Shown piece after piece: positions 39,599 through 63,707 of a DNA stretch of 64,000 bases. Source of the DNA: an uncultured archaeon (GTDB lineage Archaea > Asgardarchaeota > Thorarchaeia > Thorarchaeales > Thorarchaeaceae). The notes beneath the pieces were generated by a model. It saw only the letters and a list, made by a program, of their open reading frames with translations. It was not told the DNA's origin and did no database searches. Numbering within the stretch: position 1 is the first letter of the stretch; each line of letters begins with the position of its first letter. The DNA lies in NCBI GenBank assembly GCA_964610875.1, contig CAZSWP010000003.1, positions 48,113-112,112 on the forward strand, written 5' to 3'. A program made the translations under genes and the position numbers.

Positions 39599-40804
39599 TC
39601 ATAACAAATCTGTTGATATTACTTGTAATACATTAGTTAGACGGTTAATATCTTCTAACGTATTGTATACATGAATAGAGATTTGAACAAGTCCATCTGG
39701 TGATAAGGGAACTATTAATGGATGTGCGCAAAGGAGACCACTTCTCACAGCTATATTTGATTCGTCTAGGAATAGAGCGATATCATGACAATTGATTCCA
39801 TCTTCATTATTTCCAATATTGATTCCAAAGATTGTTGATTTTTCTGTAGGGTTGCCATAGATTTGTAGATTTGGAATATTTTGGAGGCGGCTTAGAAGAT
39901 GCTTTGCCAAGTACTGTAGATGCTGTTTCATTCCACCTGCGACAAGCATCGAATGATATTCTAATGCTGCACCAAGGCCAATAATTCCTGGAATGTTCAA
40001 TACTCCAGATTCGAATTTATCAGGTTGTAAAGAAAGTTCAAATTCATTTGCTAATACTTTAGATACAGAAGAGCTTCCGATAATTCCTGGATTGATTGCA
40101 TCACCCGTTGTTTGTTCCACCCATTGGACGGCAATTCCAGGAGGACCCATTAGTCCAATGTTTCCTGAAAACATGAGAACGTCAGGTCCTATTTTGGTTG
40201 GTATGTTATCACAAAAGGCAATTGATTGACGAATGTCAGATAGATAGATTGCCTCATAATCATGTGTTATGGATGCAATTTGATCAATCTCATTTCTTCC
40301 TCCAATCATTGTGGTTTCAGAAACTGCAACAAGGCCTGTTTTATCGTTTATCATATCTTGGATTGCAATTGGACTAGTTTCTCCTTTGCTATCTACAGGG
40401 ATTGTTATCAATTCAAGTCCTAAGATTTGTGCGATTCTCTGAAGTGTTACAAGAACTGAATGTTCTTCTCCCAAAGATACAATGATGTTCTTCTTATCTT
40501 TCCAGTCCATTCCCAGAACAAATGAGACCACCGCAGACGGAATCGAATTTTGAAACGATATCTGTGAAGTTGATGTGTCTAGATAATTTGCCAGCAATTT
40601 TCGAACATCTTCAACTAGAGATCCACCCTTTACAGCAAGATGATGTGCGCCTCTTCTTGCTGATGCTACTGTATTTTTCAGGAATTCAGATGTTGCATTG
40701 ATAACAGCTTTTGGAAGAAGTGTTGTACTTGCCGAGTCAAAATATGCTAAGTCCGGTTCTATGTCAAATATTGGAAAATCCTGTTTGACCTCTAGAGTTG
40801 TCAT
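39599..40804 (-). CDS. cysteine desulfurase (SufS)-like protein with degenerate PLP site
   Basis: DFPI, YFDSAST, KFESG, AVRSGLLCAHP. The usual SGHK is SGNI here. Confidence 0.8.
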   Translation of the reverse strand: MTTLEVKQDFPIFDIEPDLAYFDSASTTLLPKAVINATSEFLKNTVASARRGAHHLAVKGGSLVEDVRKLLANYLDTSTSQISFQNSIPSAVVSFVLGMDWKDKKNIIVSLGEEHSVLVTLQRIAQILGLELITIPVDSKGETSPIAIQDMINDKTGLVAVSETTMIGGRNEIDQIASITHDYEAIYLSDIRQSIAFCDNIPTKIGPDVLMFSGNIGLMGPPGIAVQWVEQTTGDAINPGIIGSSSVSKVLANEFELSLQPDKFESGVLNIPGIIGLGAALEYHSMLVAGGMKQHLQYLAKHLLSRLQNIPNLQIYGNPTEKSTIFGINIGNNEDGINCHDIALFLDESNIAVRSGLLCAHPLIVPLSPDGLVQISIHVYNTLEDINRLTNVLQVISTDLL

Positions 40805-40869
40805 GATATTACTTGACCAAATGTTAGGGCTTTAATTGTAACGTTGTATTCTATGGATTGTAAAGAAAA

Positions 40870-41892
40870 ATGAATCTGAATGAAGGATATTTCATCATTA
40901 CAACAGAGGATCTGATATTTGAAGTAAAAGGGAACCTCCATCCCAAGAATCGTACAATTGCATATCTTCGATATGCAATAGAAAAGAATGGTGAAAGAGA
41001 GTCTGGAACAGAAATTAGGTATAAGAAAATCTATCCTTTATCAGAACGAGAAACGTATTTGAAAAAATACTATCCAAAGTATATCTGGTATGACCCAAAT
41101 CGAAAGCGTACTTTTCAATCAATTAATGATAAAGATATAAAAATCGTAATAGACCCGGTCGACTTCTTATCAAGTCTGAGAGATAGAGGAAGTCATATTT
41201 TGCTATTACAAGAACAAGCCCTTGAATTGGCAGATACTCTTTCTAAGTGTGCGAGTATCGATATCTCTTGTTTTGGGATTACTGGCTCATTGCTTTTAGG
41301 GTTGGAGAAAGAAACATCTGATATTGATCTTGTCGTATATGGAGAGGATGAGAGTTTCAAGCTGTATAGTTATCTCCAACAGCACTTTGATGATATTGAT
41401 GGTATATCGCGGTATTCAGGAAATTTGCTTGAGAAACATGCCATATTTCGTTGGGGACCTGAAAAAGGACTGATGAAAGAGTATCAGGCTATCGAGGCAA
41501 GGAAAAATCTACAAGGCCTCTTTAGAGATTATGAATTCTTCATTCGTTTAACAAAGCCTTATTGTTCAAATAGTCCACAGTACGAGGATTACAAGATTAT
41601 AGACAAAGGCAAGATAATGCTTACTGCTTATGTACTAGATGATATTCACAGGATATTTACACCCTGTGAATACTATGTGAAGTGTGAAGAAAATCGGTAT
41701 TTGAAGAAAATCATTAGCTATAGAGGAAGATTCACCGAACAGGTAAGTAAAGGGGACACTATTGTAGTATGTGGGAGATTAGAAGAGGTTTCTGTGAAAT
41801 CTCAAAATCTATTTTATCACCAGATTGTTGTTGGAGATTGTGACGATATATTGTTAGAATTTTCAGATTATGAAAGAGTCAAAGGAACTTGA
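40870..41892 (+). CDS. predicted nucleotidyltransferase (COG1665-like)
   Basis: FEVKGNLHP...AYLRY, GITGSLL...SDIDLVVYG, SYRGRF. Confidence 0.75.
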   Translation: MNLNEGYFIITTEDLIFEVKGNLHPKNRTIAYLRYAIEKNGERESGTEIRYKKIYPLSERETYLKKYYPKYIWYDPNRKRTFQSINDKDIKIVIDPVDFLSSLRDRGSHILLLQEQALELADTLSKCASIDISCFGITGSLLLGLEKETSDIDLVVYGEDESFKLYSYLQQHFDDIDGISRYSGNLLEKHAIFRWGPEKGLMKEYQAIEARKNLQGLFRDYEFFIRLTKPYCSNSPQYEDYKIIDKGKIMLTAYVLDDIHRIFTPCEYYVKCEENRYLKKIISYRGRFTEQVSKGDTIVVCGRLEEVSVKSQNLFYHQIVVGDCDDILLEFSDYERVKGT

Positions 41893-42049
41893 TTAGGTGT
41901 GTTTTCCTATTCACTCTATATACAGCTTTCACAAACATGAGTTGTGAATGGCGCCAATATTGCGAATAATCATGATGAAAATTGGCTTATAATGGCTCTA
42001 TTTATCCAAAACAGGTATTATAATTGCTATTACATATGTGAACAAAGAC

Positions 42050-61691: not shown

Positions 61692-62222
61692 ATGGCACAT
61701 CCGACTTTCAACAGTGACTTATTCAGATTAGTAGTAGAAGAAATAGCAGGAAAAGAAGGAGTAGATGTTGCTACAGTCTTGGTAAATGCAGATGAAACAA
61801 CCGATGAAGAGATTGCTACTAAAACTGATTTGAAATTGAATGTAGTTCGTCGTATTCTTTACAAATTACATGATAATCATCTTGCCTCATATCGTCGAAT
61901 ACGTGATACAAACACTGGATGGTTTCTTTATTATTGGAAGATTGACCCAAAGAAAGCACAAACCTTAGTGAACAGGAAAAAAAGAATGGTTCTCAACCTT
62001 CTTCAACAAAGACTGGAACATGAGAGTAACAATGATTTGTATGCTTGTGTAAATCGGGATTCCTCACCTGTACCCTTCGAAGAAGCTATGAACCTTTCAT
62101 TCAGATGTCCTACATGTAATCAACCTCTTGAGTATGTTGATAACAAACAATCCGTTGATTTCCTTAAGAAGCGCGTTGAGGAATTAAAGGCTGACCTTGA
62201 GGCTACATCATCAACTACCTAG
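61692..62222 (+). CDS. tfe: transcription factor E alpha
   Basis: TDEEIA...VRRILYKL...GWFLYYW, FEEAM..FRCPTC. Confidence 0.95.
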   Translation: MAHPTFNSDLFRLVVEEIAGKEGVDVATVLVNADETTDEEIATKTDLKLNVVRRILYKLHDNHLASYRRIRDTNTGWFLYYWKIDPKKAQTLVNRKKRMVLNLLQQRLEHESNNDLYACVNRDSSPVPFEEAMNLSFRCPTCNQPLEYVDNKQSVDFLKKRVEELKADLEATSSTT

Positions 62223-62273
62223 GAATCATATGAAGGAACTCTAAGCATTATACTGAGAGGAGATTATAATTAA

Positions 62274-63029
62274 TTGAAAGAAATTGTACTAATGCCCAAA
62301 ATTTACGGTCAATACCGTAATAGACTATCCAATCAGATAGAGTCAGATATTCACGAAATGGTGCGAGAATTAGATGCCAGAATAATGCGCTTCTCTCTTG
62401 ACAATAGAGGTCATCCAAAACTCATTGTTGAAGGAAAGGACGAAGAATTTGTAATAAATGTATTACGAACTGAATTTGGTGAAGCACTAACATTTCATCA
62501 AGCACTTCCTAACACATCATATCATGGAAATTTAATTGATGTTGGAAAGGTAGGCTATGGTCTTTATATTGACATTGGAATTGTCGAACCTGAATTTTCA
62601 GATGCTTTAATCCCATTGCATAGACTTAGAGAACAACTCGATATGGAAGGCATGTCTACTCGAAAAATCGCAAAGAATCTAAATCTCGTTGATTATCTTC
62701 CAGTAGAAGTAACCATCATAGAAACAGACTCATCTGACTCAAAAATAGAGGCTGAATTTAGTGATGTTCTGCTACAGAGGCTTGAGAACTGGATCAATGA
62801 TGACCATGAACGACTTCTTGTGTTTGGCGCCAATCGAGAGATGATTGAAACTGCTTTAGGCATAACACATCATCTTGAAGACATTTATGAATTCGAACAA
62901 CTAGGGCATCTTGAGTTTGCACTGAGATGTAAAAGAAGTACACGTGCGTCAGGAATTCTTGCTGCTATAGGCCCAAAACTAAAGGGAGTTCCAATGCATC
63001 TCTTCATACCATCAGAAATAGAGAGATGA
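62274..63029 (+). CDS. DUF2110-like protein
   Basis: GKVGYGLYID and C-terminal GILAAIG. Usual tfe neighbour. Confidence 0.7.
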   Translation: MKEIVLMPKIYGQYRNRLSNQIESDIHEMVRELDARIMRFSLDNRGHPKLIVEGKDEEFVINVLRTEFGEALTFHQALPNTSYHGNLIDVGKVGYGLYIDIGIVEPEFSDALIPLHRLREQLDMEGMSTRKIAKNLNLVDYLPVEVTIIETDSSDSKIEAEFSDVLLQRLENWINDDHERLLVFGANREMIETALGITHHLEDIYEFEQLGHLEFALRCKRSTRASGILAAIGPKLKGVPMHLFIPSEIER

Positions 63030-63707
63030 ATGATGCCACGAATTGATGTTTGGCTTGTGGAACAGGGACTATTCAAATCAAGGCAGGCTGCAAAGAGAGC
63101 TATAAGGAATGGATACGTAAAAGTCAATGGGGTCATAGCAAAGCCGTCTACCAAAATTTCTGGAAACGAATCGGTTGAGGTTTCCGATGATGCTAAAGAT
63201 GTGCCACTTGGTTATACTAAACTAAGGCAGATAAATCATCATCTCCATAACAGACTTATCCAATCTGGAATGAGAGCACTAGATATTGGTAGTTCTGTAG
63301 GAGGTTTTCTCAAGTATCTACTAGAAAAAGATGTCATTGTAACAGGAATTGAAATTTCAGATGAATTCATACAAGAGTTAGAACATCTAGTAGAAGAATA
63401 TGACACACTCTCATTGATTATAGATGATGCATTTCTCCTCGAGCCCTCAGAACTGTTTGAAAAAGAAGACTTTGATTTACTTCTCATTGATGTAACAACA
63501 GATCCGGATGGCACAATCTCACTAGCAGAGAAATACTCCCTATTTGTGAAAAAAGGAGGGTACATGCTGCTGGCAATCAAATCACAAGAAGATGACCTCG
63601 AAAGAAAAACGATTGATCATGTACTCCAAGAATTAGGGTTCTCTGAATTACAAGTAATACAACTTGATGACTCAAAGAAGGAAATACACATAGTAGCTCT
63701 TCGCTAG
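63030..63707 (+). CDS. S4-domain/FtsJ-like RNA methyltransferase (TlyA-like)
   Basis: RIDVWLVEQGLFKSRQAA, LDIGSSVGGF. Confidence 0.8.
   Translation: MMPRIDVWLVEQGLFKSRQAAKRAIRNGYVKVNGVIAKPSTKISGNESVEVSDDAKDVPLGYTKLRQINHHLHNRLIQSGMRALDIGSSVGGFLKYLLEKDVIVTGIEISDEFIQELEHLVEEYDTLSLIIDDAFLLEPSELFEKEDFDLLLIDVTTDPDGTISLAEKYSLFVKKGGYMLLAIKSQEDDLERKTIDHVLQELGFSELQVIQLDDSKKEIHIVALR

Follow-up and report, generated by a model that had tools for sequence, protein, structure and literature searches.

In the DNA partition cassettes ParF-ParG, delta-omega, and SegAB, an ATPase, a tailed ribbon-helix-helix (RHH) protein, and flanking repeats usually occur together. SegAB/segS of the Sulfolobales is a chromosomal operon in which the ATPase gene is followed by the gene of a small site-specific DNA binder (PMC8682754, PMC12139799). 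In the same order of archaea, the RHH protein aCcr1 binds to a palindrome of 9 bp, the aCcr1-box, whose consensus is given as A(T/G)G(A)TA(G)A(T/G)TACN (PMC9976878). Here we describe a locus of an uncultured archaeon of the Thorarchaeaceae in which an operon, composed of an AAA+ ATPase gene and a small-protein gene, lies within a field of short palindromes repeated every 9 bp. The locus is located in a stretch of 64,000 nucleotides (contig C3, positions 48113 to 112112), which we call the window and number from its first nucleotide. The assembly comprises 3.75 Mb in 124 contigs, with a guanine-cytosine (GC) content of 39-41%, and database proteins closely related to those encoded here bear the label Candidatus Thorarchaeota.

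The word "segregation" is absent from a 2026 review of the Asgard archaea. Our literature search found no paper describing a module of an AAA+ ATPase, a small protein, and phased repeats. Judged from sequence conservation, purifying selection has long acted on the units of the field, which serve for the docking of a protein and are private to a single locus beside the origin. They may be the cognate docking sites of a conserved Asgard AAA+/small-protein cassette that would form a centromere-like or origin-organising nucleoprotein body, a reading to which we give roughly an even chance. The likeliest role would be that of a centromere-like handle segregating or organising the origin region.

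Clustering and phasing of the repeat units

An earlier sequence-only reading of the window had counted 13 perfect copies of TGTAWTACA (W, A or T) between 39.6 and 59.6 kb and had noticed none in the first 39 kb. We found 14, all at positions 39624-59611; the location was correct and the count was one too low. No perfect copy was found in the first 39 kb. The expected number in the window was 0.78 ± 0.91, and none of 100 shuffles of the window reached 14 copies. The whole assembly contained 22 perfect copies, 15 of which were located within 26.5 kb (C3:87736-114245, corresponding to window 39624-66133). When all 9-mers of the genome were compared for spatial clustering, TGTAWTACA ranked first (Poisson P ~6e-25), above the CRISPR repeats. 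Outside the field the motif was rarer than expected, with 7 copies observed versus approximately 44 under an order-5 Markov model. Restriction-modification was considered as the cause of this rarity and was rejected, as it explains neither the clustering nor the phase. The next most clustered 9-mers genome-wide belonged to CRISPR-like repeat arrays on contigs C70 and C77.

The actual repeat unit was W-GTAWTAC-W. We measured the spacing of pairs of GTAWTAC units with at most one mismatch. Within the field, a distance of 9 bp was recorded for 26 pairs and one of 18 bp for 7 pairs, and other distances were almost nil, so the 9-bp periodicity claimed in the earlier reading was exact. No 9-bp spacing peak was found in the remaining 3.73 Mb of the genome. 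An alternation of the central A/T between adjacent units, present in the first 15 sites, was gone in 276 units and was discarded.

We defined a phased array as two or more GTAWTAC units with an exact spacing of 9 bp, at least one of them perfect. All 22 phased arrays of the genome were located in a single 42-kb stretch (C3 78.8-121.2 kb), 20 of them in 87-115 kb. Together with the top rank of the 9-mer, this gives the single genome-wide density peak that the earlier reading had predicted. Further sites were present past the end of the window, at window-equivalent 66133 and 73116; therefore, the field extends beyond the window. The spacing of 14 consecutive core arrays (window 47443-55773) was 640 ± 181 bp, with a coefficient of variation of 0.28. 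This evenness was far above that of random placement (P ~1e-5, for an interval picked after inspection of the data).

Approximately half of the arrays were intergenic, both convergent gaps included, and the remainder lay inside coding sequence. The array-bearing genes were iorA, iorB, hypF (three arrays), a gene of 418 amino acids (aa), acdA, trm5, and further genes. The doublets, triplets, and degenerate arrays listed in the earlier reading, at 47443, 48302, 48925, 50795, 51384/51393, 51886, 52953/52962, 54276, 55260, 59594, and 63644, were all present, and the gene context given there, with arrays in the convergent gaps iorB/hypF and acdA/small gene and inside coding sequence, agreed with ours. 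Placement was not confined to promoters, as approximately half of the arrays were intragenic or in convergent gaps. Thus, an even genome-wide distribution and a promoter-only placement, the two outcomes which that reading had named against itself, were both excluded, and the centromere-like layout of the field is therefore supported. The field may be considered a candidate for a function in segregation.

Conservation of the field within the family

The ATPase gene was single-copy and present in 69 of the 76 family genomes searched, and its product was 74-85% identical across genera. The small gene was located directly downstream of it in all 30 loci compared. Six genomes from other genera, with GC contents of 39-54%, had their peak density of GTAWTAC in the 12-16 kb around the ATPase gene. 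There was one TGTAWTACA cluster per genome, at the ATPase locus. It contained 7 of 8 copies in G242, whose genome is a single contig of 2.58 Mb, and 15 of 22 and 8-9 of 19 copies in G008 and G087, respectively. Counts of the exact motif in 30 relatives showed no genome-wide excess over the control. The motif is clustered, not abundant.

Orthologous array positions were identified in acdA (codon 306), hypF (codons 171, 305, and 528), iorA (351), iorB (32), and several gaps. At the acdA position, 27 of 30 family loci contained an array, and the other three a single perfect unit. The codon entropy of acdA codons 302-310 was 0.36 bits, compared with 1.47 for other conserved-residue codons (30 genomes, p = 9e-6). 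The intragenic copies are thus conserved at synonymous sites in relatives, as the sequence-only reading had expected. Under this array, GGT and AGT were fixed in all 30 genomes; the adjacent Gly codons varied freely.

Selection at the DNA level was also visible where the protein varies. Both hypF and the 418-aa gene encode variable linkers in which the motif persisted at the DNA level despite changes of residues and insertions or deletions. The HypF zinc finger under an array (window 50795-50821, codons ~167-175) reads C-(D/N)-T-C-N-(T/I)-G-Y-T instead of the usual C-x-x-C-x-x-E-Y, and the Glu is retained in a zinc finger without the array (G004, family f27). Here the DNA site appears to have shaped the HypF protein sequence.

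All 30 family loci had a perfect unit 36-65 bp ahead of the ATG of the ATPase gene. This unit is likely an autoregulatory operator.

The ATPase and small-protein genes

The two genes constitute an operon on the minus strand (57056-55777), with the ATPase gene first and its stop codon overlapping the start of the small gene. The ATPase reading frame is open from a GTG at 57074, and the orthologues begin at M7. The motifs of the protein are Walker A GPVGSGKS, Walker B LFIEDV, and sensor-2 GNPRDIR; in the alignment, both Walker motifs and sensor-1 were conserved, as was a G-x-P-R-x-I type sensor-2. In Pfam only AAA_16 and AAA_22 were matched, with 24-25 bits, under the gathering cut-offs of 27 and 32.6. 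The best NCBIfam match was an ExeA-like ATPase. The family is tiny, with 18 matches among 1.84 billion representatives. Its Atlas cluster is named "hypothetical protein" of Thorarchaeota, and the nearest neighbour clusters are AAA_22/KAP. A profile search of the PDB sequences with the ATPase gave P-loop noise only.

In the small protein, an acidic/Ser-Thr linker of variable sequence joins an invariant N-terminal MSLLGKYRK to a conserved strand-helix-helix (RHH-like) domain at the C-terminus. The peptide KYRKE was common to families f1, f2, and f27, and MSLLGKYRK to the members of f1. In the predicted model, an extended segment (51-58) precedes two helices (59-72 and 76-91), and the best fold matches were RHH proteins (Arc, TacA, omega, SegB, NikR, and PutA), with weak scores. 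The f27 orthologue matched Pfam RHH_1 with E = 0.039, under the cut-off. A profile search of the PDB sequences with the small protein gave no match, and its database relatives were "hypothetical proteins" without Pfam domains in 100 of 100 cases. Going by the model and these matches, the small protein likely adopts an RHH fold. Prediction of a complex of the ATPase and the small protein gave a score of 0.00, which counts neither for nor against a contact.

A defence or toxin-antitoxin role of the operon was rejected. PADLOC gave no defence family, and the single copy, the core synteny, and the ~80% identity across genera also oppose such a role.

The operon and its repeats in distant families and on a plasmid

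In family f27 (GC ~30%), the ATPase was 44% identical to that of this genome. Of the neighbours, only the ATPase gene, the small gene, a gene encoding a putative 191-aa helix-turn-helix (HTH) protein, and hypF were retained together, and the other synteny was lost. The same phased motif was present in f27, with approximately 10 arrays within 3.5-6 kb of the operon.

In family f19, the ATPase was 27-29% identical, and the operon was ringed by a different motif, GATATC at a 13-bp phase. Genome-wide, GATATC-N7-GATATC occurred only at the operon locus (6/6 in G054, a closed 3.58-Mb genome, and 4/4 and 3/3 in two relatives), and a control pattern gave 0 copies in the f19 genomes. The strand of the f19 small protein (NFNVRLP type) differs from that of f1. 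The 191-aa HTH gene adjoined the operon in f1, f2, f27, f19, and f7, usually with hypF, and a fragment of it was found in f3.

The 33-kb plasmid pNG100 of Haloarcula marismortui (NC_006389.1) encodes a protein homologous to the ATPase over its full length (hhalign probability 98.9%), and the next gene encodes a 101-aa acidic RHH-like protein. Three AT-rich repeat blocks of the TTAAG/CTAAGA type are located before, between, and after this gene pair (3859-5195), with a period of roughly 7 bp as estimated by eye. The pair adjoins the orc1/cdc6 gene of the plasmid. A six-frame search for a ParA-type gene on pNG100 found none.

Comparison of these genomes indicates that the field sites follow the operon rather than its neighbour genes. 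The units of the field are unique in the genome, under selection at the DNA level, and co-inherited and co-varying with the operon.

Position of the field relative to the predicted replication origin

We identified a pair of inverted origin recognition boxes (ORBs) of the TTCCAGTGGAAAC...GGGGT type at 46117 (minus) and 46256 (plus), separated by an AT-rich spacer of approximately 118 bp. ORBs of such quality were nearly unique in the genome, and the pair (46117-46277) is probably oriC. The density peak lies beside and around this canonical ORB pair, in line with the sequence-only reading. In G242 and G008, the orthologous gap likewise contained an ORB pair; in G087, G004, and G015, it contained one ORB. 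Across six families (including f2, f27, f19, f7, and f3), the distance between ORB pairs and the operon was 1-17 kb. In this genome, the orc1/cdc6 gene closest to the ORB pair (C3:70295, window ~22.2 kb) is approximately 23 kb away from it. In four Thorarchaeota, one orc1/cdc6 gene was 20-35 kb from the operon, and in G054 and G024 the distance was 3-5 kb. In f19 as in this genome, the probable origin lies inside the field, but the field is centred on the operon.

A second palindrome, (A/G)GAACAYGTGYTCCA, was present three times around a 106-aa open reading frame (ORF) and the ORB pair, at 45766-45780, 46091-46105, and 46301-46315. Its core, GAACACGTGTTC, recurs beside the ORBs of two distant Asgard families (L064:7753 in G054 and L065:10735 in G024). 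This palindrome may be a further origin-associated protein site.

Features and gene context of the field

The coordinates of the field, its arrays, and the genes of interest are summarized in Table 1. Synteny of approximately 27 genes was kept in the family. These genes are mostly housekeeping genes (window ~33000-63700) in a near-constant order, from a HerA-like 1242-aa gene to the S4/methyltransferase gene. Across six other genera of the family, this order around the field was unusually stable.

Table 1 Features of the field of phased units, with positions in the window.
Feature	Position	Strand	Remark
Field of phased 9-bp units W-GTAWTAC-W, ~20 arrays of 2-3 units and single units	39615..63661		Reaches ~73.1 kb window-equivalent
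Outlying array	30730		
2-unit array in class-V aminotransferase gene	39615..39632		
Lone perfect 9-mer, intergenic, upstream of 106-aa ORF	45744..45752		
Probable oriC, two inverted ORB elements	46117..46277		46117-46138 minus, 46256-46277 plus
3-unit array within iorA	47443..47469		Orthologous position in G008 (iorA:353)
2-unit array within iorB	48302..48319		Orthologous in G242, G008
3-unit array, convergent gap iorB/hypF	48925..48951		
3-unit array within hypF, codon ~528	49724..49750		Orthologous in relatives
2-unit array within hypF, codon ~305, variable linker	50397..50414		DNA motif kept, protein variable
3-unit array within hypF over CxxC zinc-finger motif, codon ~171	50795..50821		
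Array, divergent gap hypF/137-aa ORF	51384..51410		
2-unit intergenic array, both units perfect	51886..51903		
191-aa protein gene, weak DUF134-like helix-turn-helix	52028..52603	+	
2-unit array immediately 3' of 191-aa gene	52604..52621		
Array upstream of 418-aa HEAT-like gene	52953..52979		
3-unit array within 418-aa gene	53692..53718		Orthologous in G242, G008, G006
2-unit array, gap 418-aa gene/acdA	54276..54293		
3-unit array within acdA, codons 302-310	55260..55286		Synonymous sites frozen
2-unit array, convergent gap acdA/small gene, 4 bp past stop codon of small gene	55756..55773		
Small protein gene, 101 aa	55777..56082	-	
Orphan AAA+ ATPase gene, 324 aa	56085..57056	-	
Perfect unit ~36 bp upstream of ATPase ATG, with degenerate phased neighbours	57085..57093		
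2-unit array at 5' end of divergent 128-aa membrane-protein gene	57184..57201		
2-unit array within trm5	58874..58891		
2-unit array, gap trm5/PAN	59594..59611		
2-unit array within DUF2110 gene	62450..62467		
2-unit array within S4/methyltransferase gene	63644..63661		

Proposed mechanism

The predicted cassette layout is that of the type Ib/II and SegAB systems, and the motor is of another superfamily. A ParB_N domain (PF02195) was not found in G000, G242, G087, G008, and G054, in searches whose controls gave matches. For these reasons we favour a centromere-like or origin-organising body, for which we propose the following mechanism.

We infer the identity of the binding protein, the contact between both proteins, and the cellular role as follows. 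Dimers of the small protein would each bind one 9-bp palindrome W-GTAWTAC-W, and binding of the dimers to 2-4 adjacent units would be cooperative. By analogy with the MetJ, omega, and Arc complexes, a 9-bp palindrome repeated every 9 bp would suit cooperative RHH dimers. The approximately 20 arrays, roughly 0.4-1 kb apart, would gather the origin-proximal 15-25 kb into one nucleoprotein body per chromosome. The invariant basic N-terminal peptide, carried on a flexible linker, would engage the ATPase, as in ParG-ParF or SegB-SegA, and the ATPase would move, position, or remodel the nucleoprotein body. The site ~40 bp upstream of the ATPase start codon would autoregulate the operon.

The sequence-only reading had taken the units for parS/centromere-type sites. 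The centromere-like layout stood. The ATPase is not of the ParA type, and the layout would fit segregation, control of origin firing, and organisation of the origin region alike.

Weighing of the alternatives

Several observations weigh against the proposed body. Synteny within the family is too conserved to separate linkage to the operon from linkage to the neighbour genes; the two are told apart only in f27, f19, and the plasmid. The ATPase falls outside the known families of partition motors (ParA, ParM, and TubZ), and its AlphaFold model is poor (mean predicted local distance difference test score, pLDDT, 54), being confident only in the C-terminal lid. The RHH scores of the small protein are weak (Foldseek E >4, VIA Z ≤3.4, and Pfam under the cut-off). 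Family f2 (G019) has the operon but one perfect box, at the promoter, without arrays, and a de novo search of G019 for a phased palindrome found none. The constant proximity of ORBs suits a role in replication as well as in segregation. Finally, the 191-aa HTH gene accompanies the operon just as constantly, and its product could be the protein that binds the units.

The ORB proximity could be explained by an origin-control device, which we consider unlikely. In such a device, the arrays and the AAA+/RHH pair would regulate the firing of the adjacent ORB-type origin through licensing, sequestration, or titration of the initiator or of a helicase-loading factor. It would account for ORB pairs inside the field or 1-17 kb away in six families, for arrays on both sides of the ORBs in f19 and this genome, and for the location of the pNG100 gene pair beside a replication gene, orc1/cdc6. 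The ATPase is also nearest to AAA_22/AAA_16, whose wider group includes Orc/Cdc6-like and ExeA/TniB-like proteins; however, it lacks a DNA-binding domain, whether winged-helix or other, and canonical Orc1/Cdc6 proteins have genes of their own. The f27 arrays centre on the operon, approximately 16 kb from the ORB pair, with none between, and the combination of an ATPase, a tailed RHH protein, and flanking repeats is the typical layout of a partition cassette.

More doubtful is the same system with another reader, in which the 191-aa DUF134-like HTH protein reads the units and the small tailed protein is only the adaptor of the ATPase. The constant position of the HTH gene beside the operon would fit this arrangement, and the 191-aa protein matched DUF134 weakly (E = 0.007). 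However, HTH dimers usually need half-sites about a helical turn apart, and half-sites ~5 bp apart every 9 bp would suit RHH dimers, as suggested by the MetJ, omega, and Arc complexes. From f1 to f19, the strand of the small protein changes along with the motif. In addition, the pNG100 cassette has repeats and a small protein, with no such HTH gene annotated alongside.

We consider it improbable that the field is a local regulon or silenced domain, in which hypF, ior, acd, and other genes are controlled by a repressor. This could be the small RHH protein, a cell-cycle factor like aCcr1 or the haloarchaeal CdrS, or the 191-aa DUF134-like protein. The unit equals the published aCcr1-box of an RHH transcription factor of the Sulfolobales, but the sites of aCcr1 are dispersed over promoters, whereas all arrays of this genome are in one locus. 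Many arrays are intergenic, with one at approximately -40 of the operon in 30/30 loci; however, about half are in synonymously constrained coding sequence or in convergent gaps, where no promoter would be expected. The lasting position of hypF and the HTH gene beside the operon (families f1, f2, f27, f19, and f7) would also be expected of a regulon, but the neighbours are functionally unrelated housekeeping genes and are different genes in f27.

Chance, base composition, or codon usage has a negligible probability: the unit is AT-rich and the genome has 39-41% GC, but no shuffle reached the count, the clustering P is ~6e-25, the exact 9-bp phase is found at this locus only, the field is conserved in genomes of 39-54% GC, and the synonymous sites under the acdA array are frozen.

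Significance of the locus

We tentatively suggest, leaning slightly toward doubt ourselves, that the cassette of Asgard archaea and of certain haloarchaeal plasmids contains a fourth type of motor for DNA partition. An AAA+ ATPase of the AAA_22 type would be coupled by a tailed RHH adaptor to a dispersed centromere of regular spacing, in part intragenic, within which the replication origin lies. If true, a new motor class would be added to DNA partition, and the lineage nearest to eukaryotes would possess a prokaryotic regional centromere. A multi-kilobase centromere-like region would then be written into coding sequence, at a cost in codon choice and apparently in HypF sequence too. If the locus serves origin control instead, it would be a conserved, formerly unannotated component of Asgard origins.

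Haloarcula is cultivable and genetically tractable. With a defined DNA motif, two small soluble proteins, and a plasmid homologue in Haloarcula, the locus is a cheaply testable candidate.

Comparison with known systems

Among chromosomal systems, SegAB shares with this locus short repeats both at the operon and elsewhere. In SegB, a conserved N-terminal region makes the contact with the ATPase, and a variable insert comes next, an arrangement similar to the one predicted here. The model of the small protein aligned to SegB (7duv) over 47 residues with a root-mean-square deviation of 2.8, with a Z of only 2.7. Profile searches with both protein alignments against the PDB sequences, SegA and SegB entries included, gave no SegA or SegB match. 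SegA is a ParA-type Walker ATPase, whereas the ATPase here is an AAA+ protein of the AAA_22 type. Unlike the SegAB sites, the repeats here are exactly phased 9-bp palindromes in one origin-side field, many of them inside genes.

The type Ib/II cassettes (ParF-ParG/parH, delta-omega, and ParM-ParR/parC) also encode a small RHH dimer, predicted here, with a flexible N-terminal tail. Tandem short repeats are present at the operon, its promoter included, and cooperative binding and autoregulation are proposed here as well. The cassette organisation is similar, and a homologous cassette on pNG100 was found without ParA. However, the motor here is neither ParA nor actin-like, as judged by the Pfam, NCBIfam, and cluster matches. 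Approximately 20 arrays are dispersed over 15-25 kb of the chromosome, and the arrangement is compact (3.5 kb) only in f27.

The consensus of the aCcr1-box, read as AGTAATACN, matches the W-GTAWTAC-W unit, which is a likeness at the level of the DNA site. The boxes of aCcr1 are spread over many promoters and act in transcription, whereas the units here form phased arrays at a single locus, coding sequence included. To our knowledge, aCcr1 has no tail. It is a small RHH transcription factor and is not part of an ATPase operon (PMC9976878).

The resemblance to ParABS is an analogy of layout only. In both cases, palindromic sites are clustered within tens of kilobases of the origin, some of them intragenic, the sites adjoin the genes of the system, and there is one locus per chromosome. 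The ATPase here is not a ParA (deviant Walker-A, CbiA/AAA_31), as only AAA_16/AAA_22 were matched, and 9-bp units in phased arrays take the place of 16-bp palindromes. What would be new here is a partition-like cassette that combines a new motor class with a dispersed, partly intragenic field of sites.

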